Sequence record: PX880101.1
DNA from: a phage
Length of the DNA stretch: 64,000 nt
Direction: 5' to 3' (one strand)
Shown one piece after another: positions 28,398 to 56,328 of this stretch. Both the position numbers and the translations under genes were made by a program. Under the pieces are notes generated by a model. That model searched no databases. It saw only the letters and a program-made list of their open reading frames with translations, and was not told the origin of the DNA. How positions within the stretch are numbered: position 1 is the stretch's first letter; each line of letters starts with the position of its first letter.

Positions 28398-28735
28398 GTT
28401 TGTGGAGAAATATCGTTAACTACGTGTGCGGCAATCCAACTCCTGAAGAGAAGGATGTTGTGATTCACGATTTTACTAAAAGATCTCGTGAAAAAGATCT
28501 ACTGCTAACAAAGGTGACTGATAAAGATCCTGCAGTAGGGGACTGGGCAGGTTTTGCGTTTACATCGGACAAATACACCTTTAACAAAGGTGACTACCTT
28601 GTTGTGGATTTTAACGAAGACATTGAGGGTGCTGAACCTTACTATCAAACCCTTATTGTTGCAGGGTGTGTTGATCTCTCTGCAGGCATGCACAGTTTGA
28701 TTCTTTTTGAGCTTGACTCTGAAGACCTTGAGTAG
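28394..28735 (+). CDS. hypothetical protein
   Basis: 113-aa ORF, 4-nt overlap with the helicase gene. Confidence 0.5.
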   Translation: MSLWRNIVNYVCGNPTPEEKDVVIHDFTKRSREKDLLLTKVTDKDPAVGDWAGFAFTSDKYTFNKGDYLVVDFNEDIEGAEPYYQTLIVAGCVDLSAGMHSLILFELDSEDLE

Positions 28736-28795
28736 TAAGATGTGAGTATAAAGGGGAGGCACTCCTCCCCACAAAAACTAAGGAAGCACTAAACG

Positions 28796-29098
28796 ATGAA
28801 ACGTTATAAACCATACACTTTTGAAATCGATTTCGAACTTGACGATATGTTTACTGTGGAAGCTCAGGCAGTTGTCCAGTTGCCAGACTCGGAGTGCCGT
28901 GACTCTGATGTTGACTATTACGGGTTTAGACAAATTACCGATGTGCGTGTTTACCACAACGGTGAAGAGGTGGACTTCCACCAACTGCCAAACGATATGC
29001 GCCACTCAATTTACAAACGTGCAGCCCGTGAACTAGAGTCCTATCTGGATGCAGCGACGACAGCAGCTGCATTTGCTGAAGAAGTGGGAGGTTTCTGA
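28796..29098 (+). CDS. hypothetical protein
   Basis: 100-aa ORF, RBS aagga, preceded by a GC hairpin. Confidence 0.5.
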   Translation: MKRYKPYTFEIDFELDDMFTVEAQAVVQLPDSECRDSDVDYYGFRQITDVRVYHNGEEVDFHQLPNDMRHSIYKRAARELESYLDAATTAAAFAEEVGGF

Positions 29099-29988: not shown

Positions 29989-29994
29989 CACTAG

Positions 29995-30021
29995 GCCCTG
30001 CCCGAAAGGGTGGGGCTTTTT
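29995..30021 (+). terminator. intrinsic terminator (repeated element, copy 1)
   Basis: gccctgccc-gaaa-gggtggggc plus T5; the same 22-nt hairpin recurs at 41057. Confidence 0.6.
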
Positions 30022-30039
30022 GCATTAGGAGACAGCAAA

Positions 30040-44255: not shown

Positions 44256-44581
44256 CAGAGATCATCATTTCAACTGCAGGGTATGTGTTCCTGACAATCA
44301 TTGCACTGACTATTTTGGTGACAGTGTATGGGTTTGTTATCCTTCCTATCCTTGAGACATTTAGTTTGTGTCGGTGTTGGAGAAAAGCTTACGGTCCACA
44401 ACCATGGAAGGACTGGCCCCACCTGGTGCGCTTAGCGTTCTCTTATGCTTACGATCACTCCAGTAGTGCATGCATAACCGGATACCACGCCCACAACTGG
44501 AGCTGGGAAGGATTGAGGAAATGGAATGTTACAAAGACCATACCTCTACGCATGTACAAACCTAAAAACAAAGACAGCTGA
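44252..44581 (+). CDS. membrane protein
   Basis: 109 aa; N-terminal TM segment IIISTAGYVFLTIIALTILVTVYGFVILPIL; last gene of the replication block. Confidence 0.5.
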   Translation: MTEIIISTAGYVFLTIIALTILVTVYGFVILPILETFSLCRCWRKAYGPQPWKDWPHLVRLAFSYAYDHSSSACITGYHAHNWSWEGLRKWNVTKTIPLRMYKPKNKDS

Positions 44582-44892
44582 TACTTGAAAATTCCTGGCA
44601 TATCAAGTGTAAGGGGGATTTCTAAAATGGATTTCCTCCTTTTGATATTTCACCGGGCTGGATATTTTAAAATTCTTAGAAAATCAGAAAATGGATCGAA
44701 AACTAAAATGGATTTTTCAGAGTAGGCGCGACAAGCTGAATAACTCATCCTATCGTTTGCACCATATTCCAGGCCACCATTATAGATTTCCCACACATGC
44801 TAACCTCCCTCTACTAGAACTTCCTCCACTTGCCCTTAACCTTCTATGGTAACAATCTAACCACTATCTTGAAGTTGCGGTGCAGCTTTCCA

Positions 44893-45025
44893 AGTACTCG
44901 ATCTACTTTTCATTTCATGGCTTGGATTTTCTGAAAATTTTTCTCGATAAATTTCTCAGTACTCGATCTGTTTTTCGTTTTCTGAATCGGATTTTCTGGA
45001 AATCGTTCCGGATCTCGACCTGAAA
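44893..45025. repeat. imperfect tandem direct repeat, two 65-bp units
   Basis: agtactcgatct…ggattttctg…ttctc occurs at 44893 and 44958 in the same order and spacing. Confidence 0.6.
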
Positions 45026-45130
45026 TTTTTGGGGACGAAATCGATTTTTCGTTTTCAGAAATGGATTTTTAAAATTTCTATATGGGAATATTTTATGGGA
45101 TACTGTTTTATAGGAAATTGTTACGGAGGG

Positions 45131-45148
45131 TAATTAGCATGCTAATTA
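45131..45148. repeat. 18-bp perfect palindrome taattagcatgctaatta
   Basis: Exact inverted symmetry seen directly; possible protein-binding site. Confidence 0.6.
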
Positions 45149-45216
45149 AATTTATTAAATGCGAGGAGTTCTCATTTAGAATTTTGAATGATAATCATTC
45201 TCGTTTGCAGAATAAC

Positions 45217-45258
45217 GGGCAGGCCCGGTGATTGTCTCCCGGCCCCTGTTGCCCCGGC
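45217..45258 (+). repeat. GC-rich repeated element, copy 1
   Basis: gggcaggcccggtgattgtctcccggcccctgttgcc; GC-rich island in AT-rich DNA; near-identical inverted copy at 54969-55013. Confidence 0.55.
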
Positions 45259-45356
45259 TTGTTATTATAGTATCACACAGGACAAAGAAAGCAAGGATTT
45301 TTTGCATAAATTTTTAAATGATAATGATAACCGTTCTCATTTTATGCAGCGCCCAT

Positions 45357-45396
45357 CCCCGGTGGTTGTCTCCCCCGTCACCGGTGCCTGCCGTCC
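45357..45396 (+). repeat. GC-rich repeated element, copy 2 (diverged)
   Basis: ccccggtggttgtctcccccgtcaccggtgcctgccgtcc shares the ggtgRttgtctccc core; the preceding aatgataat…tgcag is also duplicated at 45183 and 45315. Confidence 0.45.
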
Positions 45397-45598
45397 TTTC
45401 GATAGGTATATTTTGCCACCTGGCGGGGCCGCTGTCAACACTTTTCAAAAAAAAATTTCTAACCTGATGCGCTGACCGCTGCAACCTGGCGGGGCCAGCC
45501 TGGCAGGGCCTAACTGACCAGGTAGGAGATAATGAAGGCTTGCAAACCTGGTGGGCCTATGCTATAGGATAGGTAACAATTGAAGAGGAGGTACAAAA

Positions 45599-45775
45599 AT
45601 GGAAGGTAATATGATCCCCCTGGAAAATGTAGCTATTAATGACACTGAGGCTATCGCCCTGGTTGAAAAGGCTATGGCGGGAGCGTTGGAACATAAAGAA
45701 GAGTACGAAAAAATGATGGTTAACCTGGCAGGGGCGGCGGCTGGAGAATTCTACCCAAAAAATAATTTTAACTAA
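45599..45775 (+). CDS. small hypothetical protein (58 aa), first gene of the early array
   Basis: Not in ORF track; ATG follows strong RBS gaagaggagg at 7-nt spacing. Confidence 0.45.
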   Translation: MEGNMIPLENVAINDTEAIALVEKAMAGALEHKEEYEKMMVNLAGAAAGEFYPKNNFN

Positions 45776-45778
45776 TGG

Positions 45779-45807
45779 TTGACAGCTCGGACAGTTCTTG
45801 TTATTCT
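45779..45807 (+). promoter_or_regulatory. sigma70-like early promoter
   Basis: TTGACA-17 nt-TATTCT. Confidence 0.45.
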
Positions 45808-45860
45808 TATCCTCGCAAGGTGAACAACACCACACCAATTAACAGAGAGGATAAAAAATC

Positions 45861-46058
45861 ATGAACGCCTACGGAATTAAAGTACGTCGCAACACTCGCC
45901 AGGTGGTCACCAATCAAGTGATTTGCCGGGTGGATGTAACCATCAACAACGGGCAAGGCCTTTATAAATTTCGTCGCGGTCATAGCTATACCCTGCAGCA
46001 GCTTAACCGTTGCGCCCTGACAAAAGGTCAGATCAACCACTGGTTTAATAAAAAATAA
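45861..46058 (+). CDS. small basic hypothetical protein
   Basis: 65-aa ORF, RBS agagagga. Confidence 0.5.
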   Translation: MNAYGIKVRRNTRQVVTNQVICRVDVTINNGQGLYKFRRGHSYTLQQLNRCALTKGQINHWFNKK

Positions 46059-46061
46059 ATA

Positions 46062-46090
46062 TTGACACGTAGTCTGACACAAAATATACT
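46062..46090 (+). promoter_or_regulatory. sigma70-like early promoter
   Basis: TTGACA-17 nt-TATACT. Confidence 0.55.
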
Positions 46091-46122
46091 TAAATCACAA
46101 AAGACACTAAGAGGATAAAATC

Positions 46123-46521
46123 ATGAAAACTACAACCTTTAATTTTGACAATGCCGACTTCTCTTTTTCTGATGTTAAGAATTGCCGCCGTGATCGTGGA
46201 TTTTACAAGGCTTATAATCTGGTTGGCCTAGACGATGATAATAATTTGCACGAAGTAGCGGAGATCCGGTACTATGCCGCCGCCAGCGGTAACACTAACT
46301 ACTGCGTTTTTTGGATACACGACAACAAGAATAATAAGTACGGTTATACTGGTGGCAAGGCGAGCGGTCACGGTTATGATAAGGCCAATGCAGCACTTGA
46401 GAGCGCGTTAAATGCTATGGGGATCACTGCCAACGGCTGGATCTATGAAGATGAGTTTTTGTCAGCACTTGCTGCCCACCTGGGGTATAAAAAGCACATT
46501 GTGACATGCGCCCACGAATAA
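46123..46521 (+). CDS. hypothetical protein
   Basis: 132-aa ORF, RBS aagagga. Confidence 0.55.
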   Translation: MKTTTFNFDNADFSFSDVKNCRRDRGFYKAYNLVGLDDDNNLHEVAEIRYYAAASGNTNYCVFWIHDNKNNKYGYTGGKASGHGYDKANAALESALNAMGITANGWIYEDEFLSALAAHLGYKKHIVTCAHE

Positions 46522-46531
46522 AAAAAAATTA

Positions 46532-46560
46532 TTGACACGCTGCAAAATTAAAGTAAACTA
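46532..46560 (+). promoter_or_regulatory. sigma70-like early promoter
   Basis: TTGACA-17 nt-TAAACT, followed by leader hairpin ggcggg-aatgttt-cccgcc. Confidence 0.5.
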
Positions 46561-46608
46561 GACACAAAAGGCGGGAATGTTTCCCGCCAACACAAAGGAA
46601 AAAAGATC

Positions 46609-47004
46609 ATGAATAAGAACGTACGCCGCATCATGAACGAACTGGCAAACGATGAAAAAATTATTGATATGCATTTGGTAAACATTTGCCGCCGTTGTGT
46701 AACATATAACAACCGCGCCGCAAAAGCGCGTGAGATGAACGCAAAAGGCACCTTAAAGCCCTTTCAGGTGGTTGTAAAATCTATAACCAGTGCAGCAGAC
46801 CAGGCGCATGACCACAACAACGGGAGCACTAATATTGATCCGTCTTACGTAATGAAACGGATCCGGACTTGCAAGAATAAAGAGCAGGTGTATAACGTCA
46901 TAGATTGGTTGGACTCCCTGGGCGATGTGGTTTATAATAGGTTTTCTGCAGCTATCGAGATCCAGCTTGACAGACTGGACGGGAAAGTACTGAAAACTTA
47001 CTAA
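46609..47004 (+). CDS. hypothetical protein
   Basis: 131-aa ORF, RBS aaggaaaa. Confidence 0.55.
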   Translation: MNKNVRRIMNELANDEKIIDMHLVNICRRCVTYNNRAAKAREMNAKGTLKPFQVVVKSITSAADQAHDHNNGSTNIDPSYVMKRIRTCKNKEQVYNVIDWLDSLGDVVYNRFSAAIEIQLDRLDGKVLKTY

Positions 47005-47052
47005 GTTTATTTTTAGATGGCCTTGACGCCAGGGCCATCAATAAAGTAAACT
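47005..47052 (+). repeat. promoter-stem-loop cassette (PeSL-like), copy A
   Basis: ttatttttagatggccTTGACgccagggccatcaataaagTAAACT: 7-bp stem gatggcc/ggccatc with the -35 hexamer in the loop, -10 18 nt downstream. Confidence 0.6.
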
Positions 47053-47083
47053 AATCCCAGTTAAGCTAAAAGGAGGCTTGAAG

Positions 47084-47203
47084 ATGAGCACTACACGCCA
47101 GCACACAAAGGTAACTATTATCGTTTGCATCATTGGTTATATCCTGGCGCAAATGTTGATGGGTAGCGCCAACGGTGTCGCAAAATTTTTCTTAAACTTT
47201 TAA
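47084..47203 (+). CDS. small membrane peptide (39 aa)
   Basis: Not in ORF track; strong RBS aaaggagg; hydrophobic core IIVCIIGYILAQMLMG. Confidence 0.4.
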   Translation: MSTTRQHTKVTIIVCIIGYILAQMLMGSANGVAKFFLNF

Positions 47204-47231
47204 TTGACAAGCTAACTTAGATCGGTATACT
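47204..47231 (+). promoter_or_regulatory. sigma70-like early promoter
   Basis: TTGACA-16 nt-TATACT, then leader hairpin gggaaaacttccc. Confidence 0.55.
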
Positions 47232-47281
47232 AAACACATCAACGGGAAAACTTCCCAGAACACACAAAAGGAGAAAACACC

Positions 47282-47623
47282 ATGACCACTATGACCGCCG
47301 CAGAAAAAGCTATTCAGATCGCTGCCCTGAAAAAACAGATCGCAGACCTTGAGAATAAGATCGATAACTTTGAAATCGACGAGGACAAGTACGACGAAAA
47401 CTATGATGAATGGTTAGACGAGATCTACGGCGAAATTATGATCGGAAACATTTCTTTTCTTCCGTCGCGTATCCTCAAGGAGCTAGATCCTATCGCTTAC
47501 CGCTGCGGATTTAGCGACTACATCGACAGCCTGGATATTGAGGACGATGAAGAATACCAGGAATTACAGACAGAGTTGGAAGAAGCAAAAGAAGAGCTTG
47601 CGGAGCTGGAAGAAAACGAGTAA
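47282..47623 (+). CDS. highly acidic protein; candidate DNA-mimic/anti-restriction factor
   Basis: 113 aa with very high Asp/Glu content (…DIEDDEEYQELQTELEEAKEELAELEENE); RBS aaaggag. Confidence 0.5.
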   Translation: MTTMTAAEKAIQIAALKKQIADLENKIDNFEIDEDKYDENYDEWLDEIYGEIMIGNISFLPSRILKELDPIAYRCGFSDYIDSLDIEDDEEYQELQTELEEAKEELAELEENE

Positions 47624-47671
47624 GATTATTTTTAGATGGCCTTGACTCCAGGGCCATCAATAAAGTAAACT
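47624..47671 (+). repeat. promoter-stem-loop cassette (PeSL-like), copy B
   Basis: gattatttttagatggccTTGACTccagggccatcaataaagTAAACT; one mismatch to copy A. Confidence 0.6.
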
Positions 47672-47712
47672 TTATACTGTTAACACTGAACTAATGCATA
47701 GGAGTTAAAACC

Positions 47713-47958
47713 ATGGCAGCACTAATCACTAAATATTACGCCCCTACCAACACCAAAAGCGCCCGTATCATGGTAAAAGGCTTCGGACGTAAAAAGGTTT
47801 ACACCTGGGATTATGCCTTAGACACGGAAGACAACTACACCAACGCGATGACAGATTTTATTAATGAGCTGAACACGCGGATCTTGACAAATTATAAAAT
47901 TACCGATATTGCCTATATAGGGGAAGGCGGGATCTGTTTTGTCGGTATCGTCAAATAA
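47713..47958 (+). CDS. hypothetical protein
   Basis: 81-aa ORF, RBS aggag. Confidence 0.5.
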   Translation: MAALITKYYAPTNTKSARIMVKGFGRKKVYTWDYALDTEDNYTNAMTDFINELNTRILTNYKITDIAYIGEGGICFVGIVK

Positions 47959-48016
47959 ACTGTTTTTTCGGTGGTCCTGGTAGCAGGGCCATCTATAAAG
48001 ATAGTTTATCAATACA

Positions 48017-48388
48017 ATGAAAGGAGAAAGTAACATGATCAGTGGGGCAAGTTTTATTATTGGCGCTATTGCTACGGCTTTAATTGTAAACAAGATCCAA
48101 TCTAAAAACGAAAAAGAGAGCAACGCGCTCACAGAATACCCATTTTGGATATTCAACGACAATGAAGACTACATTATCAAGTACAAGAATGAGAAGGGCG
48201 ACCAGGTAACACCGCGACCGATCCCGGCCTACAAGATGCAAGAAACACTATACCGCCTAAAGGCTGGAGGCGCAAAAATCGTAGACTTTTGGGGATATGA
48301 TTGCAAGGATCAGGAGGTTATAAAACGGCGTATCCGGGCTATTCAGGCCAATATTGAAGTTAGCAAGGGGGGAATATATGAAGATTAA
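48017..48388 (+). CDS. hypothetical protein with N-terminal hydrophobic segment
   Basis: 123 aa, RBS aaaggag; preceded by a degenerate PeSL-like hairpin (47971-48000). Confidence 0.5.
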   Translation: MKGESNMISGASFIIGAIATALIVNKIQSKNEKESNALTEYPFWIFNDNEDYIIKYKNEKGDQVTPRPIPAYKMQETLYRLKAGGAKIVDFWGYDCKDQEVIKRRIRAIQANIEVSKGGIYED

Positions 48389-48575
48389 TTTTGAGAAGAT
48401 TGTAAAGCGATCTCATGATTCCGAAGAGCTGCCGGAACGCCGCCAGCGTAACAATAAACTGAATAAGCCAAAAAGATTTGGGAAGATCTGGCGGAATCAT
48501 TATGATCGTAAATTGCCGGGCCTCCTTTTGGAACGTGAACGGCAGGCGGAACGATACCGCCACAAAGGCAACTAA
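48378..48575 (+). CDS. small basic hypothetical protein
   Basis: ATG 48378 after RBS aagggggg (ORF open from 48354). Confidence 0.4.
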   Translation: MKINFEKIVKRSHDSEELPERRQRNNKLNKPKRFGKIWRNHYDRKLPGLLLERERQAERYRHKGN

Positions 48576-48583
48576 CAACCAAC

Positions 48584-48612
48584 GCCCCGCCATCGTGCGG
48601 GGCTTTTTATTT
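48584..48612 (+). terminator. intrinsic terminator
   Basis: gccccgc-catcgt-gcggggc followed by tttttattt. Confidence 0.65.
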
Positions 48613-48755
48613 CTACCCTACGAATAGCGCCCCTGGTTGGCCCTGTAAGCGCCAAAAAGGCCCCACCTATGCAATCGCCCCCTTTAACCTGAAAACATCG
48701 CTTAGGGCCGTTTTATGGCGTTAAAAATATCATTGACAGTGATTTTATTTAAAGC

Positions 48756-48783
48756 TTGACATCTTAAACAGGTTAGCTATACT
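48756..48783 (+). promoter_or_regulatory. sigma70-like early promoter
   Basis: TTGACA-16 nt-TATACT; a second TTGACA lies 23 nt upstream. Confidence 0.55.
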
Positions 48784-48815
48784 AACCACATCAAAGAGAG
48801 AAAGGAGTAAACGCC

Positions 48816-49076
48816 ATGCGTAAATTAAAAAATTTTGATAAAGTTGATGTTGTCCTGAATAATTTTTACTACTGCAACAACAAGGCCATTTGGTGGCGTG
48901 ATAGTTCCACCGATAAAGTCAAGGCGCGCTTTCTCCAGGGGCACTGGCAAGGCCGCCCAGTGATTAAAATCATGGGGCAATTGGTAGCGTTTAAAAATTG
49001 CCGCCGTGTTGATGACGTTGAGGAGATTTTAAACATTTTGCGCCACAATAATTTAAAAAATAGTGTTGACAAGTAA
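48816..49076 (+). CDS. hypothetical protein
   Basis: 86-aa ORF, RBS aaaggag. Confidence 0.5.
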   Translation: MRKLKNFDKVDVVLNNFYYCNNKAIWWRDSSTDKVKARFLQGHWQGRPVIKIMGQLVAFKNCRRVDDVEEILNILRHNNLKNSVDK

Positions 49077-49093
49077 ATCTCAATAAGTATAAT
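49066..49093 (+). promoter_or_regulatory. sigma70-like early promoter
   Basis: TTGACA-16 nt-TATAAT overlapping the stop of the upstream gene; leader hairpin ggcgggaaaacttaccgcc. Confidence 0.55.
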
Positions 49094-49150
49094 TAAACAC
49101 ACAGGCGGGAAAACTTACCGCCACTAACAAAGAAAACAGGAGAAAATATC

Positions 49151-49774
49151 ATGACCACCGTTAACATTACCACAGGTTACAATTTATCTTTCGACGTGCT
49201 GACCGACGAACAAAAAGAAAAAGCCATTGAAATGGTACGCGAAAGAGAAGAACACAGCGGGGATGACTTTTTTGCAGAAAGTGTAATTGAACACTACAAA
49301 GAATATATCTTTCCAGAGTACGGCCTTGAAGATACCGAAGTACATTGGTCCGGCTTTTGGTGCCAGGGTGACGGCGCGTCAATCAGTGCTGAAAACGTGG
49401 ATTTAGAAAAATTTTTGCGTAAAGTAAAGGCCCTGACCAAGTTCCGATCAATTCGTCACTTGTTCGGCACAATGCACGATGGCGAGTTATCAGCCAGTGT
49501 TGAACGCGACAAGTACAGCCATTACAGCCATGAAAACACTGTAAGCGGATACATTGATACCACCTGGCTAGATCTGACCGCCAAACAAGAAAACAAAGTG
49601 GAAGACCTGGAAGAGCTGATCACCGAGACGGTACGGGAGCTATCCCGCAAGGTTTACGTAGACCTGGAGGAGGCCTATCTAGAACAGTTCACTACCGAAA
49701 ACCTGATCGGCCTTATTGAGGCCAATGATTGGCGGTTTGATGTGGATGAATATGGAGAGATGAGTTTTTCATAA
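49151..49774 (+). CDS. acidic hypothetical protein
   Basis: 207-aa ORF, RBS caggaga; net acidic. Confidence 0.55.
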   Translation: MTTVNITTGYNLSFDVLTDEQKEKAIEMVREREEHSGDDFFAESVIEHYKEYIFPEYGLEDTEVHWSGFWCQGDGASISAENVDLEKFLRKVKALTKFRSIRHLFGTMHDGELSASVERDKYSHYSHENTVSGYIDTTWLDLTAKQENKVEDLEELITETVRELSRKVYVDLEEAYLEQFTTENLIGLIEANDWRFDVDEYGEMSFS

Positions 49775-49782
49775 ATAAAGTG

Positions 49783-49810
49783 TTGCAATAATCTAAAAAC
49801 CTGCTATATT
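49783..49810 (+). promoter_or_regulatory. sigma70-like early promoter
   Basis: TTGCAA-16 nt-TATATT, then leader hairpin ggggcaagacgtttgcccc. Confidence 0.45.
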
Positions 49811-49865
49811 AAAACTCAAGGGGGGGCAAGACGTTTGCCCCACACAAAACAAAGAGGAAAACATT

Positions 49866-50246
49866 ATGAAAAACACTACTAAAGCTATTGACACCGTTAT
49901 GTTTAACCTGGTTACCTTTCGCGAGGATATGAAAGATCTTCCACGTGAAACAGTGTGCGATCACATTGAAAACTATCGCAAACTAATCAAAGAGTTGCCT
50001 TTAAAACGTGACCAGTATGCGGCTAACGCTATGCTCAACGCCATGATCAAAAAGATGATTCAGTGTGATTTAACCCTGGCCTATGATTATGCAGGTGGTC
50101 GTTTTGCAGTATACAATCAGCCCGTGCCTGGTATGAGCACCACCGAAGAATTGCACGCGTTAAATCTGAAACAAGATGTATGGGATAACATGCCCCGCGT
50201 GGTGGTGTGGGCAGAAAGCGGAAAGATTTACGGCGATAATTTTTAA
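49866..50246 (+). CDS. hypothetical protein
   Basis: 126-aa ORF, RBS agaggaaaa. Confidence 0.55.
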   Translation: MKNTTKAIDTVMFNLVTFREDMKDLPRETVCDHIENYRKLIKELPLKRDQYAANAMLNAMIKKMIQCDLTLAYDYAGGRFAVYNQPVPGMSTTEELHALNLKQDVWDNMPRVVVWAESGKIYGDNF

Positions 50247-50256
50247 TCAGGTAACA

Positions 50257-50284
50257 GGCGGCATATTTGCCGCCTTATTGTTAA
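50257..50284 (+). terminator. intrinsic terminator/attenuator
   Basis: ggcggc-atattt-gccgcc followed by ttattgtt. Confidence 0.5.
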
Positions 50285-50310
50285 ACAGAACTGCAAAAGA
50301 GGTACATAGA

Positions 50311-50682
50311 ATGGAATTTATTATTTTGGCTGTAGTAGTTGCCTTGTTCAACGCCTGGATCGCTGGCAAGATAGGTAGATCCGCTTTTCTATGGTTTGTT
50401 ATATCTATTTTCCTGGGAGTGGTTGCAACTATTGTATTGGTTATCCTTGCAATTGTTGACAAGGGCGATAATAGAAAGGGTAAAGTGTTTTCCGACCTGT
50501 ATGACGCACAAACGTTTGTCAACGCCTATTATAGTGATCTTCCAGTCTCCCTACGCTGCAGCCTGGCACAACAGGTTTTTGATGAGGCTAAAACCAGAGA
50601 CCAAGCCCATGAGATATGTTTAACTGAAGCGGATCGCCTATTTGAGAGGAATAGAAAATATGTGGACCAGCCGTTTAAATAA
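50311..50682 (+). CDS. membrane protein with two predicted TM helices
   Basis: ATG 50311 after RBS aaagagg (ORF open from 50176); MEFIILAVVVALFNAWIAG and FLWFVISIFLGVVATIVLVILAIV. Confidence 0.5.
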   Translation: MEFIILAVVVALFNAWIAGKIGRSAFLWFVISIFLGVVATIVLVILAIVDKGDNRKGKVFSDLYDAQTFVNAYYSDLPVSLRCSLAQQVFDEAKTRDQAHEICLTEADRLFERNRKYVDQPFK

Positions 50683-50792
50683 CGCCACGTTAATTAATCC
50701 CTTTAGTGAAGATTTGAAGCCAGCCGCCTGGCGTGACGGATTCAATAACGAACGCTTTATTTTCAGGCCTGATCTTGAGGAATTTTATAACA

Positions 50793-50918
50793 ATGGATCG
50801 AACAACAGCGGAGATAATTTTTCTTGTGGTGTGCGTGGTGATAGGACTCCTGGGGGCCATTGTAAACCACGTCACTACTAACAGGAGGGAAGGGGGAGAC
50901 GATGACAACCAAGGATAA
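50793..50918 (+). CDS. small membrane peptide (41 aa)
   Basis: Hydrophobic core IIFLVVCVVIGLLGAIV; an alternative overlapping frame (50660-50881) cannot be excluded. Confidence 0.25.
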   Translation: MDRTTAEIIFLVVCVVIGLLGAIVNHVTTNRREGGDDDNQG

Positions 50919-51021
50919 GCCATGCGCTGATAAGGTGCGCCGTGTTATGGTATGGCTTGAGATTATCGCCCTTGAAATATTGTTAGGCGTAGGGATGTAC
51001 TTTATCGCTGTAAGTAACTAA
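50902..51021 (+). CDS. small membrane peptide (39 aa)
   Basis: Not in ORF track; RBS aggagggaaggggga; hydrophobic core VMVWLEIIALEILLGVGMYFIAV. Confidence 0.3.
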   Translation: MTTKDKPCADKVRRVMVWLEIIALEILLGVGMYFIAVSN

Positions 51022-51025
51022 GAGC

Positions 51026-51053
51026 GGCCCCCGATCATGGGGGCCTATCTTTT
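51026..51053 (+). terminator. intrinsic terminator
   Basis: ggccccc-gatcat-gggggcc followed by tatctttt. Confidence 0.65.
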
Positions 51054-51075
51054 AAAAAATTTTTCTTCCGGGGTG

Positions 51076-51103
51076 TTGCAATCCGGTCCGGAATGTGGAT
51101 AAT
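51076..51103 (+). promoter_or_regulatory. sigma70-like early promoter
   Basis: TTGCAA-16 nt-GATAAT, then leader hairpin ggggagctaatcccc. Confidence 0.45.
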
Positions 51104-51159
51104 AACAATCAACGGGGAGCTAATCCCCACCACCACAAAAACCAGAAAGGAGAAACAAA

Positions 51160-51360
51160 ATGAGCAACAATATCCGCGTTATTAACTTCAAAAAAGAAGA
51201 AAAAATTGCCGTGCTGATTGACGGTCAAGAAATCTTCAAGGGCGACTATGAAGATCATCAAACGGCGATTAGTATCACTCGCGTGATTGGTTATCATAAT
51301 TTCTACCCCCAAGGCGCTGAGGCAGCAGTTAAACGAATCAAAGAGATTGTAGGCCTGTAA
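51160..51360 (+). CDS. hypothetical protein
   Basis: 66-aa ORF, RBS aaaggaga. Confidence 0.5.
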   Translation: MSNNIRVINFKKEEKIAVLIDGQEIFKGDYEDHQTAISITRVIGYHNFYPQGAEAAVKRIKEIVGL

Positions 51361-51362
51361 AA

Positions 51363-51409
51363 TTTATTTTTAGATGGCCTTGACTTCAGGGCCATCGATA
51401 AAGTAAATT
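51363..51409 (+). repeat. promoter-stem-loop cassette (PeSL-like), copy C
   Basis: tttatttttagatggccTTGACTtcagggccatcgataaagTAAATT; same architecture as copies A and B. Confidence 0.6.
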
Positions 51410-51444
51410 TAAACCCTGTTAAAATACCACGCAGTTAACAAGGA

Positions 51445-51753
51445 GTGATAGACATGTTTATCCAGGCTAATAATCTTTATTTCTTTGATGGTCAGATCGT
51501 AGATGGTGTGGAAGTGGAGATCACCGGGTGCCCTGGCGGTCAGGCTATGACTTTTCGGAATAATGCCTTTGATGATTCTCATATCGTTATGAGAATGGAA
51601 GTTACGAAGCTGGACGACAAGAAAACACTTATTGACTATTCTGTGAAAGATCATCCAGACTACCGCATGATCCATGGTGATTTGTGCATTGTTGACCGTG
51701 ACAAGGTGGGCGGCATTGTGATCGCTATTGTGAACGATGTTTTCTCAAACTAA
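51445..51753 (+). CDS. hypothetical protein
   Basis: 102-aa ORF, RBS aaggag. Confidence 0.5.
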   Translation: MIDMFIQANNLYFFDGQIVDGVEVEITGCPGGQAMTFRNNAFDDSHIVMRMEVTKLDDKKTLIDYSVKDHPDYRMIHGDLCIVDRDKVGGIVIAIVNDVFSN

Positions 51754-51930
51754 TTTCAGCAGGCGATTTTATGAAAGTCAAACTATATTACCTTAATGAG
51801 CTTAACCCCCTTGCCCAGGTCCGCGCCCTAGCTAATACCTTGATTTGTGAGAAATCTGTATATTGTGTTGAGCTTAACACGTCTCAAAGGTGGTTACTTT
51901 GACATCCATGCTGCAATCAACGGCCTGAAT

Positions 51931-52110
51931 ATGGAATTTATACGCTTACGTAACAGCCGCCGGAATCTGGCAAGAATGGAACAAGATCCGGCCCACCTTC
52001 GCAAGCTGGTTATTGAAAATCATCTGATGTTTAATGCCGAGGGGGATTATTACCATTTTCACCGCAAACGCTGGTACCGTGGCGGCAATACAGGCAAGAA
52101 TGCAAAATAA
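51931..52110 (+). CDS. small basic hypothetical protein
   Basis: In frame with ORF 51847-52110; start ambiguous (ATG 51847 or 51931); a 43-aa ORF at 51771-51902 is an alternative neighbour. Confidence 0.35.
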   Translation: MEFIRLRNSRRNLARMEQDPAHLRKLVIENHLMFNAEGDYYHFHRKRWYRGGNTGKNAK

Positions 52111-52147
52111 GGCCCCTAGCAGGGCCTGCAGCAATATAATCACATAA

Positions 52148-52179
52148 AGGCCATGCGGTTGCATGGCCTTTATTATTTT
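52148..52179 (+). terminator. intrinsic terminator
   Basis: aggccatgc-ggtt-gcatggcct followed by ttattatttt; preceded by a second hairpin ggcccctagcagggcc. Confidence 0.65.
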
Positions 52180-52227
52180 GGCGTTACAACGGCATACGGG
52201 GCGCTTAAAAAATTTTTAAAGAAGTAC

Positions 52228-52256
52228 TTGCATCATTCCCGACAATATGGATAATA
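52228..52256 (+). promoter_or_regulatory. sigma70-like early promoter
   Basis: TTGCAT-17 nt-ATAATA, then leader hairpin gggggaggccccc. Confidence 0.45.
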
Positions 52257-52312
52257 AGAGTTGTCGAGGGGGAGGCCCCCAATCGTTGACCAGATAGATA
52301 GGAGTTAAAATC

Positions 52313-52597
52313 ATGGCTATTGTTACCGCTGGCGATGTAGTAGAAATGGAAGCAAAATACTTAAAAGCGGGTATGCACATCCTACGGAATGATCAAGAGT
52401 TATTATTAACGATGGTTGACTATAATCACGGCCAGGATTATCCAAGCATCGACTACTTTTTTGAGTATGTTGATGAAGAGTTGAAAGAGGATGAGGCCTA
52501 TTGCGGTGAGTTCTGCAACTTCTTTTGTCCTGATGAGGTTGTAAAGGTTATTTATCAACCTGGCGTAGCTTTCCCGCTGCACGCTATCAATAAATAA
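52313..52597 (+). CDS. hypothetical protein
   Basis: 94-aa ORF, RBS taggag. Confidence 0.5.
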   Translation: MAIVTAGDVVEMEAKYLKAGMHILRNDQELLLTMVDYNHGQDYPSIDYFFEYVDEELKEDEAYCGEFCNFFCPDEVVKVIYQPGVAFPLHAINK

Positions 52598-52652
52598 ACC
52601 TGGCGGGGCCGAAAAGGCCCCCAATTATGAAAATAAAGAGAGGCAAATCATC

Positions 52653-52886
52653 ATGATGGAACAAATTAAACGCGCCGAGGCTATTAATGGCAACGTGATC
52701 TATTTTGTCAGCAAAAACGAAAAAGGCGTACCATATGCGGCAGTAATAGTACAACCTGACGGCGATTATTGGTTTACTGTGTACGGCGCTTATTCTTTTG
52801 GGCGTCCAGTGCATGATAAAATTTTGAAAGTAGCGAACCCTACCGGGAAGAATATCACAGCAGAAAAATTTTTTGAAAATAGTTGA
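52653..52886 (+). CDS. hypothetical protein
   Basis: 77-aa ORF, RBS agagagg; leader hairpin ggggccgaaaaggcccc. Confidence 0.5.
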   Translation: MMEQIKRAEAINGNVIYFVSKNEKGVPYAAVIVQPDGDYWFTVYGAYSFGRPVHDKILKVANPTGKNITAEKFFENS

Positions 52887-52910
52887 CATGACCATATAAG
52901 ACTGTAATAT
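52883..52910 (+). promoter_or_regulatory. sigma70-like early promoter
   Basis: TTGACA-16 nt-TAATAT; the -35 overlaps the stop codon of the upstream gene. Confidence 0.5.
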
Positions 52911-52961
52911 ATAAATCAAAGGGGGCAACGAACCCCACCAACTACAAAGAGGATAAAAATC

Positions 52962-53141
52962 ATGGCTATTATTGCAAAGACTGAGATCGTAGGCTTAGAT
53001 TCTATTCTCCTCGCATATGAGGAAGCTATAGAAATGTATGTGGTTTCCTATGGTGAGTATATCCGTGAATATAAATCTATTGATCTGGCTTTTGAATGTT
53101 ATATCCGCCAGGTTAATAAAGCGTACGATGATTATCGTTAA
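52962..53141 (+). CDS. small hypothetical protein (59 aa)
   Basis: Not in ORF track; RBS aagagga; downstream of promoter and leader hairpin gggggcaacgaacccc. Confidence 0.45.
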   Translation: MAIIAKTEIVGLDSILLAYEEAIEMYVVSYGEYIREYKSIDLAFECYIRQVNKAYDDYR

Positions 53142-53147
53142 AATAGT

Positions 53148-53177
53148 TTGACAACAGCCATCTTACAAAGCATAATA
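53148..53177 (+). promoter_or_regulatory. sigma70-like early promoter
   Basis: TTGACA-18 nt-ATAATA, then leader hairpin ggcggtggaatggtccgcc. Confidence 0.5.
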
Positions 53178-53228
53178 CATAAGGCGGTGGAATGGTCCGC
53201 CACCTGGAACAAAGAAGAGGTAAACACC

Positions 53229-53474
53229 ATGAAAAGCAATAAAGGTTATAACGGTTACAAAAACAAAACTCATTGGAATGTAAGCCTTTGGATTAATAAC
53301 GATGAGTCATTGTACCGGTTGGCCCAAGGCTTTATTAACGCCAATGCTAATCGTAATGATGCGGCGCGGGATATGATGCTTTTTCTGGAGCTAACCGGAC
53401 AAGATAAGACCCCGGACGGCTTCAAGTACAGCACTACGGCGATCCGTGCCGCGATGGTTGGAATGAAACACTAA
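53229..53474 (+). CDS. hypothetical protein
   Basis: ATG 53229 after RBS aagaggtaa (ORF open from 53148, which would overlap the promoter). Confidence 0.5.
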   Translation: MKSNKGYNGYKNKTHWNVSLWINNDESLYRLAQGFINANANRNDAARDMMLFLELTGQDKTPDGFKYSTTAIRAAMVGMKH

Positions 53475-53665
53475 AAGCACATAGCTGCCTTACCCTGGGG
53501 CTGTGGTAGCGGCCCCATGAATAAGGTTACTAACAGAAGAGAATAAACACCGTGAAACAGAAATTAATCGATGCAGTGATCTTGGTTATTGCCCTGGGTA
53601 TTGGCCTGATTGCAACCATGTCTAATATGATCTTGTCTTCCAACGGTATCTGGTGAGGTTGGCAA

Positions 53666-53881
53666 ATGATCACTAACAAAACAGGCAAAACGGAATTTTT
53701 ACGCAACTTACAGATCGGCAAGCCTGAGATCTGGTACTGCACTAAAACACCGCGTGACGAAATGAAAGACTTCACCGCCACGCTGCAACGGGTAAAGATA
53801 TCTATCACGCAGAAAAAGGCCTTACTAGTGGTGGAAGGGGAGATCCCCCAAACCGTTGTTATAGTTGAGCGTACAGCATAG
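53666..53881 (+). CDS. hypothetical protein
   Basis: 71-aa ORF, RBS gaggttgg; a 34-aa hydrophobic peptide ORF (53551-53655, GTG start) may precede it. Confidence 0.45.
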   Translation: MITNKTGKTEFLRNLQIGKPEIWYCTKTPRDEMKDFTATLQRVKISITQKKALLVVEGEIPQTVVIVERTA

Positions 53882-53972
53882 TTTAATTTATACAGATACC
53901 TGAAAATTAACCAACAAAGCATAAACAGGCGGTTACCGCCGCCTTAAACGTAGCAGAAAGAGGATAGACACA

Positions 53973-54257
53973 ATGAAAAAGATGATCGCAGTGGTTACCC
54001 TGGTTGTTGGACTTAATGCGCCTGTAATGGCTAAAGAGCTGGCAAAAGAGGTTAATCTAACGGATATTCATGCCGTCAATCAAATCGGGGTTACTTATCG
54101 CTTATGCCTTGCCGCTAAAACTTTTAAGGACGGCACAACAGAGTACTACGGATTCGAGGGTATCCGGTGCGGTGAGCTTGCTCGCGACCTTAAGGAAGAT
54201 CCAGACCTGGAGGAACTGCCCATAACCGTGAACGGGAAAACTTACGTGAACCGTTAA
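53973..54257 (+). CDS. secreted/periplasmic small protein
   Basis: 94 aa; signal-peptide-like N-terminus MKKMIAVVTLVVGLNAPVMA; RBS aagagga. Confidence 0.5.
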   Translation: MKKMIAVVTLVVGLNAPVMAKELAKEVNLTDIHAVNQIGVTYRLCLAAKTFKDGTTEYYGFEGIRCGELARDLKEDPDLEELPITVNGKTYVNR

Positions 54258-54259
54258 CC

Positions 54260-54394
54260 ATGAGAAAGATAATTATTACCATGGGGATCGTGGCGGCAAT
54301 GTTGGCGATCTTTCCCTTTATGGTTAGGTATGTGCTGATTAATGTTGTCCTGGTAGTCAGCGATCTGGTGTTATATATTAACTCATTGTTTTAG
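54260..54394 (+). CDS. small membrane peptide (44 aa)
   Basis: Not in ORF track; hydrophobic MGIVAAMLAIFPFMVRYVLINVVLVVSDLVLYI; 2 nt after the upstream stop. Confidence 0.3.
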   Translation: MRKIIITMGIVAAMLAIFPFMVRYVLINVVLVVSDLVLYINSLF

Positions 54395-54402
54395 GCGCGA
54401 TA

Positions 54403-54594
54403 ATGACAGCGGAAGAAGTTAAAAAAGTACTGGCGGTACTGCGTTATCATAATCATTGCAAGGTGAAGAATGATCCTGATTATCTTGATTCATCCCTTGA
54501 AGAGGATACACTACAAGCCATAAGCAACATGCAAGAATTGCTTAAGCGTATGACAGAGAAAAACCGACCGGACTACATAGGGGGTAAAATATGA
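54403..54594 (+). CDS. hypothetical protein
   Basis: 63-aa ORF. Confidence 0.4.
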   Translation: MTAEEVKKVLAVLRYHNHCKVKNDPDYLDSSLEEDTLQAISNMQELLKRMTEKNRPDYIGGKI

Positions 54595-54902
54595 TCGCTA
54601 TTACGCCAACCGTTTTAGATTGGTATCGGCAACGCATAGCGCCTCCGCTGGCTATCTTCAAAGATGCGGAAGCAAAACAACGCCGGATCTCAATACATGA
54701 GATCATCAACCTTAACGCTGGAGGCACACCATACCGCCCAGGACCTGGCCGTGAGATGGACAATACATTGGCGATCCTGAAGATACGCCGTAAACGGTCC
54801 TCCCTTACGCTGGATTCATTACACACAATGCAGTCTCCGTTCCAGGTGACTGGGAAACGGATCGCCAGGTCCTGGACAAAGGCCAATGACCGGACCGTAT
54901 AA
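54591..54902 (+). CDS. basic hypothetical protein
   Basis: 103-aa ORF, 4-nt overlap with upstream gene. Confidence 0.45.
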   Translation: MIAITPTVLDWYRQRIAPPLAIFKDAEAKQRRISIHEIINLNAGGTPYRPGPGREMDNTLAILKIRRKRSSLTLDSLHTMQSPFQVTGKRIARSWTKANDRTV

Positions 54903-54968
54903 ATAAAAAGTGTTTTGGTACTGATTTTGGGGTTGACTTGTTCGGCCCCTTTTGCTATTCTTATTAAA

Positions 54969-55013
54969 CGGGCGGCACTTGGGAACAGGGGGAGACAATC
55001 ACCAGGCCTGCCT
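54969..55013 (-). repeat. GC-rich repeated element, copy 3 (inverted relative to copy 1)
   Basis: Reverse complement reads caggcaggcctggtgattgtctccccctgttcccaag, about 30 of 34 identical to copy 1 at 45217. Confidence 0.55.
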
Positions 55014-55037
55014 GTCATATAAGAACTATAAAAACCG

Positions 55038-55067
55038 TTGACATCTGCCAGGGGGGTGGGGTAACAT
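55038..55067 (+). promoter_or_regulatory. sigma70-like early promoter
   Basis: TTGACA-18 nt-TAACAT, then leader hairpin gggcaaaggtgccc. Confidence 0.4.
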
Positions 55068-55121
55068 TTATCTTGAAGGGGCAAAGGTGCCCACACAACA
55101 ACCAGAAGAGAGGAAAACACT

Positions 55122-55394
55122 ATGTCAAGCTGGATTAATCAAGAAGTCGAATCACGTTTTAATGCTATTTGGGATCTCATCGAAAAAGAAGACGGCACAT
55201 CAAGCCCCTACCTCAACAATTTGGAATTCCATTTTGTGGAAGCGATGAACGCAGAACATGATCACGAAGGTGGTGCGGACGAGTTCGCTAAAGGGTATGG
55301 CTTCAATAATGCCAACGAAATGATCGAGGCGGTTGTACTCCAGGCTGAGGAAGATTATCAATTAAAAACGCTTGAATTCTGCCGCCGTAAGTAA
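55122..55394 (+). CDS. acidic hypothetical protein
   Basis: 90-aa ORF, RBS agagagga. Confidence 0.5.
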   Translation: MSSWINQEVESRFNAIWDLIEKEDGTSSPYLNNLEFHFVEAMNAEHDHEGGADEFAKGYGFNNANEMIEAVVLQAEEDYQLKTLEFCRRK

Positions 55395-55454
55395 TAGGAT
55401 AATGACACGGGCCGGGAGGCCCACTAATCAGAACCACACAAAGAGGTAAACATC

Positions 55455-55718
55455 ATGAAACGTCTTGATCAGCTTAAACTAGTTCAGTACATGGCCTACA
55501 AAGTTCTTGAAGTCCAAAAAGGTAGCAAAAAAGAGGTTTGCGAGAAAGCATATAAGATCTTTACCCGTAAAAAAGATGATTGGATGTTACGCCAGACCAA
55601 AAAAGCCGATATCCTGGGATACCTGGAAGAAGAGATCCGACTTGAAGAACAAGAAGAGATCCGCCGTAGTGAGGCAGATTATCAGGCAGCTTGGGAAAAC
55701 TGGATGAGTAACAAATAA
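55455..55718 (+). CDS. hypothetical protein
   Basis: 87-aa ORF, RBS aagaggtaa; leader hairpin gggccgggaggccc. Confidence 0.5.
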   Translation: MKRLDQLKLVQYMAYKVLEVQKGSKKEVCEKAYKIFTRKKDDWMLRQTKKADILGYLEEEIRLEEQEEIRRSEADYQAAWENWMSNK

Positions 55719-55785
55719 TACAACAAGTTACATGGTCAGGGGCAATAAAGCCCCTTGATCGCATAAAAAATTATGCTATCCTTGG

Positions 55786-55814
55786 TTGACAAGGATCGTC
55801 AGTTTTGCTATATT
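55786..55814 (+). promoter_or_regulatory. sigma70-like early promoter
   Basis: TTGACA-17 nt-TATATT. Confidence 0.55.
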
Positions 55815-55862
55815 CTTTTTGAAGGGAAGTTGTAAGAAAATTAACTAAGAGGTAAAAACACC

Positions 55863-56282
55863 ATGAACATTAAATCTAATAATCCGGCATATAGCTTTGA
55901 TAACGCTTTTTGTCACGGTCCGGCGGCGAAAGGATTCGAAATCGATGGTAAACTAATTATTGTCAATGTTGACGGGGAAGAGGTTGCAGTATATCCGGTG
56001 GCAGACGTAAAAAGCCGTTTACAATGCCGCATTGATGTTACCGCCTATCAGCTTGATCCGGTCCGCATAGTTGCCCTGGTCCTGGAAGAAGAAATTAAAG
56101 CCATGCACCATAGCAACAGATTTATTGGTGACGCGCAGGATAATATGAAAGTATGCCGCCATAAAGTTAATGAAGTGCTTAAAGAGTACGGCTATAAAGA
56201 TCTTATGATCAAACGTGAGGAAAAATTCCGCTACCGTAACGACCTGGCAAATCGAATCTATGAAATATACGAATCATTATAA
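55863..56282 (+). CDS. hypothetical protein, last gene of the rightward early array
   Basis: 139-aa ORF, RBS aagaggtaa; followed by a terminator. Confidence 0.55.
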   Translation: MNIKSNNPAYSFDNAFCHGPAAKGFEIDGKLIIVNVDGEEVAVYPVADVKSRLQCRIDVTAYQLDPVRIVALVLEEEIKAMHHSNRFIGDAQDNMKVCRHKVNEVLKEYGYKDLMIKREEKFRYRNDLANRIYEIYESL

Positions 56283-56300
56283 TTTCTTAACTAAACTATC

Positions 56301-56328
56301 AGGGGCTTTAAAAGGCCCCTTTCTTTTT
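56301..56328 (+). terminator. intrinsic terminator closing the early array
   Basis: aggggc-tttaaaag-gcccct followed by ttcttttt. Confidence 0.65.

Follow-up and report, generated by a model that had tools for sequence, protein, structure and literature searches.

A promoter-linked hairpin heads small, putatively early genes of an rV5-like coliphage and may act at the 5' end of their mRNAs

Why should a phage place a GC-rich hairpin directly behind the promoter of one small gene after another? This question is raised by a run of small genes between positions 45,779 and 56,282 of a 64,000-nucleotide (nt) stretch of phage DNA (sequence record PX880101.1), which was analysed at its full length and is called the window below. 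We show here that a unit composed of a sigma-70 promoter, a hairpin, an A/C-rich tract, a Shine-Dalgarno (SD) sequence and an ATG recurs in this region with a common anatomy, that the hairpin is enriched over chance, conserved in structure, strand-specific and linked to its promoter, and that breakpoints of gene gain and loss lie in repeated motifs. We tentatively propose that the unit is a modular early cassette whose transcribed hairpin acts at the mRNA 5' end, probably by hindering RppH and RNase E.

The DNA belongs to an rV5-like Vequintavirus. Between 45.7 and 53.6 kb it is 99.8% identical to Escherichia phage A6-1 and 90-97% identical to about 120 rV5-like phages (Vequintavirus), and the region is the counterpart of rV5 open reading frames (ORFs) 198-164, with its small plus-strand genes in a run and with neither minus-strand genes nor strong minus-strand promoters. 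The paper on the rV5 genome lists 33 promoters of sigma-70 type and 20 terminators and proposes the region as part of a transcription unit 10-1-238-164; hairpins downstream of promoters are not mentioned there, and some hairpins of the present type (class A below) are labelled as terminators in deposited annotations. A literature search on rV5-like, phi92-like and 121Q-like phages, which was in part poorly aimed, returned no prior description of a promoter-hairpin unit, and an Rfam scan of positions 44000-57500 gave two sub-threshold matches at chance level and none above chance.

Anatomy and enrichment of the expression unit

The original prediction, made from the DNA letters alone, had assigned one layout of promoter, hairpin, A/C-rich tract and SD to at least twelve genes. 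This layout holds for ten of the twelve listed: the genes starting at 46609, 47282, 49151, 49866, 51160, 52313, 52962, 53229 and 55122 each have a GC hairpin behind a good sigma-70 promoter, the promoter of gene 55455 is weak, and genes 52653 and 53973 have the hairpin without a promoter (Table 1). Both proposed -35 hexamers, TTGACA and TTGCAA, were found, together with TTGCAT, and the spacer measures 16-18 nt as had been stated, 16 nt being commonest. The -10 elements of the nine good promoters are of the form TAnnnT, 9-12 of the 12 positions of the -35 and -10 match the consensus, and the 20 nt 5' of the -35 are 78% A+T, compared with 56% for the window.

The hairpin follows the -10 at a distance of 6-13 nt, a narrower range than the 5-25 nt originally suggested, and ends 20-32 nt before the ATG. 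In the nine good units its stems comprise 4-8 bp and its loops 3-9 nt, with folding energies of -4 to -13 kcal/mol. The tract between hairpin and SD consists of 56% A, 28% C, 9% G and 7% T (84% A+C), as compared with 32% A, 20% C, 23% G and 25% T for the region, the leader of unit 6 having a lower A/C content than those of the other units; on the plus strand no T-run follows any class A hairpin. The fold of each predicted 5' untranslated region (UTR) has one hairpin, at its 5' side, and all else, the SD included, is unpaired; folding z-scores against shuffled sequences run from -0.2 to -4.3. When the transcription start (+1) is placed at a purine that follows a pyrimidine, 7 nt past the -10, the predicted unpaired stretch between it and the hairpin measures 0-6 nt (median about 4) in the window units. 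Four further promoters in the range, at 45779, 46062, 48756 and 55786, are followed by an A/C-rich leader without a convincing hairpin; these hairpin-less cassettes have the same leader, shorter by about one hairpin length.

Enrichment over shuffled sequence, on which the original prediction had made its case depend, was found when the 50 nt downstream of the 18 intergenic promoters of the region were subjected to 2000 dinucleotide shuffles. A hairpin at an offset of 6-13 nt is present in 11 of the 18 promoters as against 0.89 +/- 0.92 in the shuffles, none of which reached 11, and thus chance is ruled out. With strict hairpin criteria, 8 promoters carry one, against 0.15 +/- 0.39. A hairpin is seen at 7.4% (loose criteria) or 1.6% (strict criteria) of random window positions and, of 22 strong promoter-like sites in the rest of the window, at only one. 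There is also an excess of promoter-like sites as such (40 versus 23.7 +/- 5.6).

Conservation of the hairpin and mobility of its leader

We compared the window with eleven further rV5-like genomes (loci L001-L006 and L011-L015). For each of the 12 hairpins, nearly every allele in these 12 genomes retains a hairpin at the same place despite changes in sequence, while the loops vary freely. The hairpin of unit 1 is kept throughout, with MiataMamis carrying a different 9-bp stem, GGCGGTTGAtacTCAGCCGCC, in its stead, and that of unit 5 exists in two allele families, the second being GGGGAGacaCTCCCC. Unit 4 stem alleles show A-T/G.T/G-C exchanges; likewise, at one stem position of unit 6 Phage 206 has G.T and MiataMamis A-T where the window has G-C. 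In the window one C-to-A change weakens the hairpin of unit 3 (GGCGGGAAaacTTCCCGCC in relatives) and the stem of unit 7 has 4 bp (relatives have GGGGCaacaaGCCCC); the -10 of unit 10 reads TAAGAT in relatives. The promoterless hairpin at 52605-52621, GGGGCCgaaaaGGCCCC, occurs in Phage 206 (L006) as its exact reverse complement with the loop ttttc, an allele that its sequence identifies as an inversion of a small palindrome with the structure preserved. Upstream of the other promoterless hairpin, that of gene 53973, only a decayed promoter-like remnant, CATAAA, is left. In homology-based alignments 88% of cells are paired, a figure that drops to 38-58% on sliding the 3' partner by 1-3 columns. 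These comparisons support the view that the structure of the hairpin is conserved, its sequence and loop are not, and structure counts rather than sequence.

A covariance model built from 37 units was used to search 303 kb at a threshold of E <= 0.05. It recovered unit 7 of the window, which was not in the seed (match at 52912), and gave 108 matches, all 108 of them on the early-gene strand; the stem-loops of the T4-type phage RB49 gave none. The model alignment contains 69 distinct rows and, with the caveat that it was fitted to the model's own structure, 80% of its cells pair as compared with 67.1 +/- 1.0 in shuffles, and 61 cells are changed on both sides, compared with 22 +/- 3.5. The covariation score is 0.318 versus 0.144 +/- 0.013, a value reached in none of 500 shuffles, and slid controls score 0.05-0.21.

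The hairpin also keeps company with its promoter when genes come and go. In rV5, ime and magaca an inserted ORF has captured the 55455 leader and the displaced 55455 homologue has no hairpin, and the 53229 leader is joined to the homologue of the next gene (53552) in rV5, S127 and Phage 206. As judged from these rearrangements, the hairpin accompanies the promoter, not the gene, through gene gain and loss. The leader at 53183-53228 (hairpin GGCGGTGGAAT, tract and SD aagaggnaaacacc) furthermore resembles L007:9497-9542, which precedes a non-homologous gene of Justusliebigvirus ESCO32, and this similarity suggests that leaders move independently of coding sequences.

Mapping of insertions and deletions (indels) between the window and six relatives revealed roughly ten distinct indels or replacements, and in at least 5 of them the junctions fall within repeats of the leader, the -35 or the terminator. 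A 32-nt repeat of leader and SD flanks a 291-nt cassette (53244-53534), and a 36-nt leader repeat flanks the extra ORF166 of rV5. At 48733-48783 the window has two tandem TTGACA hexamers 23 nt apart (48733 and 48756); between the same hexamers lie 260 nt in S127 (S127 BCL3) and 542 nt in MiataMamis, with extra ORFs, so that the window arrangement represents a deletion scar between two promoters. Two replacements begin directly after a -35, and a 540-nt deletion in SYGMH1 fuses two terminator hairpins. The repeated regulatory parts, namely the -35 hexamer, the leader with its SD and the terminators, would thus double as recombination joints through which ORFan cassettes may be gained, lost and swapped, as has been described for cassettes of T4-type phages.

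The same unit stands before most small early ORFs of Justusliebigvirus (ESCO32, alia) and of the jumbo Asteriusvirus BF17. It comprises a sigma-70 promoter with a spacer of usually 16 nt, 8-14 nt of intervening sequence, a GC hairpin (e.g., GGCGGGAAatggTTTCCCGCC), about 20-25 A-rich nt, an SD and an ATG. BLAST searches with single units found 2-5 copies per Stephanstirmvirinae genome and 8-22 copies per genome in Asteriusvirus, 121Q and PBECO4 among them. In ESCO32 the gene orthologous to 49866 (71% amino acid identity) has an unrelated hairpin at the same position, and across the three phage lineages the hairpin lies 6-14 nt from the -10.

Possible roles of the hairpin

These results support the hairpin being a selected, strand-specific and transcribed structure beside the predicted transcription start. 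Given its structural conservation, its strand specificity, its transcription from its own promoter and its linkage to that promoter, a role at the mRNA 5' end is best supported. In the cassette that we envisage, an AT-rich, UP-like stretch and a strong host sigma-70 promoter would be followed by a short A-rich initial transcribed segment, the GC hairpin, beginning about 0-6 nt past the predicted +1, a U-poor A/C tract free of structure, a strong SD and the ATG. Transcribed from its own promoter, the hairpin would act in the RNA as a 5'-proximal structure and, in what we regard as the most probable though still tentative reading, would prolong the life of the early mRNA by limiting the access of RppH and of the 5' sensor of RNase E to the 5' end, and the U-poor tract would keep the ribosome site open and offer few RNase E sites. 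The stabilizing 5'-end hairpin that the original prediction had proposed is thereby upheld as regards selection, strand, promoter linkage and position beside the predicted start, and stabilization itself would be consistent with these properties. RppH and RNase E both require single-stranded 5' termini, which is the accepted explanation of stabilization by 5' structures (PMC3997798), and RNase E cleaves AU-rich single-stranded RNA (PMC9943677). The window moreover encodes an Srd-like protein (Table 1); as T4 Srd stimulates RNase E on host mRNA (PMC4980113), such a protein provides a rationale for shielding phage mRNAs.

Several points weigh against protection of the 5' end. Richards and Belasco showed that RNase E readily bypasses a non-terminal stem-loop orthogonal to its scanning path (PMC9943677), for which reason a non-terminal hairpin as a block to RNase E scanning was dropped from consideration, and only about 10% of E. 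coli mRNAs are RppH-dependent (PMC3997798). The predicted unpaired 5' segment amounts to 0-6 nt in the window and to 4-7 nt in phi92-like and 121Q-like units. According to Emory, Bouvet and Belasco (1992), a stabilizing hairpin reportedly must be within about 2-4 nt of the 5' end, a limit at whose edge the predicted segments lie. As no promoter precedes the conserved hairpins at 52605 and 53927, adjacency to the start is not obligatory, and several strong early promoters have no hairpin. Furthermore, the literature search mentioned above gave no transcriptomes or mapped transcription starts for rV5-like, phi92-like or 121Q-like phages. The excess of G.T over A.C mismatches is modest, at 20 versus 11 in an automated count contaminated by non-genuine helices and about 9 versus 2, still modest, in a hand count of orthologous alleles; as a sign of structure at the RNA rather than the DNA level, this asymmetry is no more than suggestive.

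Hairpins associated with promoters are known to act in another way in T4-type phages, whose promoter-early stem-loops (PeSLs) raise the possibility that the present hairpins are terminators or attenuators, damping read-through from upstream cassettes so that it does not build up along the array. The stem-loops of RB49 PeSLs cut downstream expression like a strong terminator (PMC2839356), terminators in 5' UTRs are common in Pseudomonas phages (PMC10914365), the array contains many tandem promoters, and some related hairpins are annotated as terminators. However, class A tails are A/C-rich with 7% T, and as no T-run follows any of these hairpins, none is a canonical terminator for its own transcript; the terminator scan of the plus strand lists none of them, and genuine T-run terminators stand separately in the array. 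Moreover, the hairpins lie 3' of their own promoters, so that an efficient terminator would abort the mRNA of its own cassette, and we consider such a function unlikely. RNase III needs longer stems than the 4-9 bp present here. It is rather unlikely, too, that the hairpin serves the upstream cistron of read-through transcripts, blocking 3' exonucleases and stabilizing that cistron once the leader has been cleaved. 3' exonucleases do stall at stable GC stems, two hairpins, at 52605 and 53927, are conserved though they lack a promoter, and all hairpins lie in short intergenic gaps, just past a stop codon and the promoter; yet the offset from the -10 is tightly held at 6-14 nt in three phage lineages, the hairpin keeps to the promoter and not to the upstream gene on gene insertion or deletion, and the first unit past a terminator (e.g., 49066, 51076) has a hairpin as well. 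The minus-strand terminator scan does list 46588-46570, 53944-53927, 51132-51110 and 52936-52922, and the A-rich segment before the hairpin would form a T-rich tail on the complement that could stop antisense transcription. These tails are mostly poor (GTTGATG, TGTGTGTT, CTTCAAG), the region is without minus-strand genes or strong minus-strand promoters and the covariance model is specific to the plus strand (108/108 matches), which leaves antisense termination very improbable.

A phage or host RNA-binding factor might recognize the 5' hairpin and bring about protection, enhanced translation or a timed shut-off, as the original prediction had also suggested. Uniform placement in three lineages and a partly conserved flanking motif, with CATCAA-like sequence before the hairpin and GGGAA...TTCCC in many stems, would suit such a tag, and phages are known to modulate RNA decay (PMC4980113). 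Stem sequence, stem length and loop nevertheless vary freely between cassettes and alleles, one loop being inverted and one stem replaced, the alignment has no invariant columns, no candidate binding protein was found, and the cassette genes are all of unknown function; recognition thus appears improbable. The fixed distance from the -10, the predicted lack of structure in the remainder of the leader, and the shared leader of hairpin-less cassettes, shorter by the length of a hairpin, would also accord with a co-transcriptional role, in which the nascent hairpin aids promoter escape, keeps the polymerase from backtracking at very strong promoters or shields the ribosome site against the RNA context upstream. 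As equally strong nearby promoters at 37450, 43207, 46062 and 48756 manage without a hairpin, we regard this as quite improbable. The proposal that the whole array is co-regulated was overstated, since two of the genes have no promoter, four promoters have no hairpin, and terminators split the array.

Returning to protection of the 5' end, we may speculate further that early mRNAs of several unrelated large coliphages (rV5-like, phi92-like and 121Q-like) have the hairpin in common as a 'self' mark, which spares them from phage-induced decay, e.g., by RNase E stimulated by an Srd-like protein, and spreads horizontally as a mobile leader cassette attachable to unrelated genes. So broad a proposal is rather unlikely to hold, and we offer it as a conjecture.

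Neighbouring elements and relation to known cassettes

Table 1. Promoter-hairpin units and other elements of the window; positions are those of the 64,000-nt stretch, and promoters are given as -35, spacer length and -10.
Feature	Coordinates (strand)	Promoter	Hairpin	Tract, SD and remarks	ATG
Unit 1	46532..46611 (+)	-35 TTGACA 46532-46537, -10 TAAACT 46554-46559	GGCGGGAAtgtTTCCCGCC 46570-46588	A/C tract, SD aagga; covariance-model match E 6e-07	46609
Unit 2	47204..47284 (+)	-35 TTGACA 47204, -10 TATACT 47226-47231	GGGAAaacTTCCC 47244-47256	tract agaacacacaaaa, SD ggag	47282
Unit 3	49066..49153 (+)	consensus TTGACA-16-TATAAT 49066-49093	49104-49122		49151
Unit 4	49783..49868 (+)	TTGCAA-16-TATATT 49783-49810	GGGGCAAGacgTTTGCCCC 49823-49841	tract acacaaaacaa	49866
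Unit 5	51076..51162 (+)	TTGCAA-16-GATAAT 51076-51103	GGGGAgctaaTCCCC 51114-51128	tract accaccacaaaaacc	51160
Unit 6	52228..52315 (+)	TTGCAT-16-GATAAT 52228-52255	GGGGGaggCCCCC 52268-52280		52313
Unit 7	52883..52964 (+)	TTGACA-16-TAATAT 52883-52910	52921-52936		52962
Unit 8	53148..53231 (+)	TTGACA-17-CATAAT 53148-53176	GGCGGTGGaatggtCCGCCACC 53183-53204		53229
Unit 9	55038..55124 (+)	TTGACA-18-TAACAT 55038-55067	GGGCAaaggTGCCC 55079-55092	tract acacaacaacc	55122
Unit 10, weak promoter	55372..55457 (+)	TTGAAT-17-TAGGAT 55372-55400	GGGCCgggaGGCCC 55409-55422	tract	55455
Promoterless hairpin	52605..52655 (+)		GGGGCCgaaaaGGCCCC 52605-52621	tract, SD	52653
Promoterless hairpin	53927..53975 (+)		AGGCGGTtaccGCCGCCT 53927-53944	tract, SD	53973
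Extra unit, beyond the range of the original prediction	28713..28798 (+)	TTGACT-17-TAAGAT	GGGGAGGcactCCTCCCC 28753-28770 (+)	tract acaaaaac; 100-aa ORF	28796
Cassette without convincing hairpin	45779..45863 (+)	TTGACA-17-TATTCT	marginal, 4 bp	A/C-rich leader, SD	45861
Cassettes similar to 45779	46062, 48756, 55786		none convincing
Class B, terminator-like hairpins with T-runs	48584-48603, 50256-50275, 51026-51045, 52144-52173, 54929-54949, 56301-56320 (+)			from terminator scan
Class C composite motif	47016-47039, 47635-47658, 51373-51396 (+)		gatggccTTGACgccagggccatc / gatggccTTGACnccagggccatc	repeat ttatttttaGATGGCCTTGACnCCAGGGCCATCaataaagtaaac
Srd-like protein	18082-19128 (-)			349 aa; best match HNH endonuclease PHROG

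The ten cassette genes tested all fall into PHROGs of unknown function (10/10), and in PHROGs and Pfam the sole exception to unknown function among cassette genes is DUF7249, in the 53229 gene. The protein encoded at 18082-19128, which corresponds to rV5 gp11, additionally matches "decoy of host sigma70" (8e-13) and "Srd anti-sigma factor" (5.8e-10).

Apart from the class A hairpins, two further types of hairpin occur in the region. Several counterparts of the class B elements are annotated as terminators in phage Murica. Class C is a composite motif located directly after stop codons: the loop of its 10-bp hairpin contains a TTGAC that resembles a -35, and TAAACT follows at a distance of 18 nt. 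In the degenerate copies (47970-47993, 53496-53517) the hairpin is retained and the TTGAC lost. The motif is confined to Vequintavirus, with 3 copies per genome in 121 records; the Murica annotation labels it a terminator, that of Gotham a promoter. At 54929-54961 a terminator-like hairpin, GGGGTTGACTTGTTCGGCCCC, followed by TTTTGC holds a -35 (TTGACT) in its loop, and its T-run enters the -10 TATTCT; this overlap of terminator and promoter resembles the PeSLs of RB49.

Three observations concern other parts of the window or other records. At 29944-30030 a strong terminator-like hairpin, AGGCCCTGCCCgaaaGGGTGGGGCTTTTTG, stands 20 nt behind a near-consensus promoter, TTGACA-17-TACAAT, and the arrangement may represent either a promoter-proximal terminator or a promoter-like site at a gene end. 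The sole minus-strand match of the covariance model, at 42309-42344 (E 0.013), was set aside as an unrelated hairpin that is terminator-like on the plus strand; here the hairpin AGGGAGATctaATCTCCCT (42318-42337), followed by TTTC, lies inside or between plus-strand genes. About 20 GenBank records (MG0656xx) named "Campylobacter phage" with C. jejuni as host are 94-100% identical to rV5-like or phi92-like phages of E. coli, and judging from this identity their host labels are probably wrong.

The closest known systems are the PeSLs, in which a strong sigma-70 promoter combined with a stem-loop recurs within the hyperplastic regions of T4-type phages such as RB49/phi1, PST and nt-1 (Arbiol et al., 2010, PMC2839356; Comeau et al., 2014, PMC4122927). 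Those authors view the stem-loops as terminators and recombination between the copies as the means by which ORFans are shuffled. Encapsidated mini-circles, arising when flanking motifs recombine, are a further feature of PeSLs. Both systems have an AT-rich stretch, a strong sigma-70 early promoter, a GC-rich stem-loop, an A/C-rich leader, an SD and an ATG, are repeated in a hyperplastic region of small ORFans and have indel junctions in repeated regulatory motifs; a GC-rich stem-loop next to the promoter, often of the polyG/polyC type, in a motif that closes with the SD and start codon on its 3' side, is present in the window units. They differ in lineage, as the present units are from Vequintavirinae, Stephanstirmvirinae and Asteriusvirus and PeSLs from Straboviridae. 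Direct reading of the cassettes in the RB49 hyperplastic region reveals that its hairpins fill the promoter spacer, whereas class A hairpins are located in the 5' UTR, 3' of the -10, and lack a T-run; within the window, it is mainly the class C motif (47016 and its copies), with the -35-like TTGAC inside the hairpin, that is similar to the RB49 arrangement. In addition, the window hairpins differ in sequence among themselves and are not the recombination joints. A tblastn search with the 55122 protein, RB49-like according to the rV5 record, did not retrieve RB49.

Other likenesses are more partial. The stabilizing 5'-terminal structures of the E. coli ompA and papA 5' UTRs are likewise followed by an efficiently translated leader (PMC3997798), but each serves a single host gene, as opposed to the serial use on about ten phage cassettes here. 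The predicted 0-6 unpaired nt also lie at or beyond the limit reported for ompA. Premature terminators and short RNAs in Pseudomonas phage 5' UTRs, found by Oxford Nanopore Technologies (ONT)-cappable-seq, share a structured element directly 3' of a phage promoter (PMC10914365); those elements have mapped 3' ends and are mostly U-tract hairpins yielding RNAs of 70-250 nt (PMC10914365), while the present hairpins have no U-tracts and would give RNAs of only about 25-30 nt. The unstructured A/C-rich tract immediately 5' of the SD is reminiscent of GcvB target sites. According to Sharma et al. (2007), these are reportedly C/A-rich translational enhancers in enterobacterial 5' UTRs. Small promoter-proximal hairpins are also found in the lambda nut boxB element and in the N4 virion RNA polymerase (vRNAP) promoters, and the 52605 loop GAAAA is boxB-like. 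Readings of these kinds were rejected, as the loops are variable and one is inverted in a relative. There is also no boxA, transcription here is from host sigma-70 promoters, and rV5-like phages are not known to have an N-like or vRNAP gene.

The unit is thus a variant of the T4-type promoter-stem-loop cassettes, close in concept both to PeSLs and to classical 5' stabilizers. Whatever the mechanism, it extends mobile regulatory cassettes of the PeSL kind beyond the T4-type phages, locates sites of ORFan gain and loss in rV5-like genomes, and calls for correction of annotations in which several such hairpins are deposited as terminators. If protection of the 5' end holds true, the hairpin would be a simple, portable 5' module through which three lineages of large coliphages express takeover genes during the destruction of host mRNA, and it would be useful for phage engineering and for the prediction of early genes.

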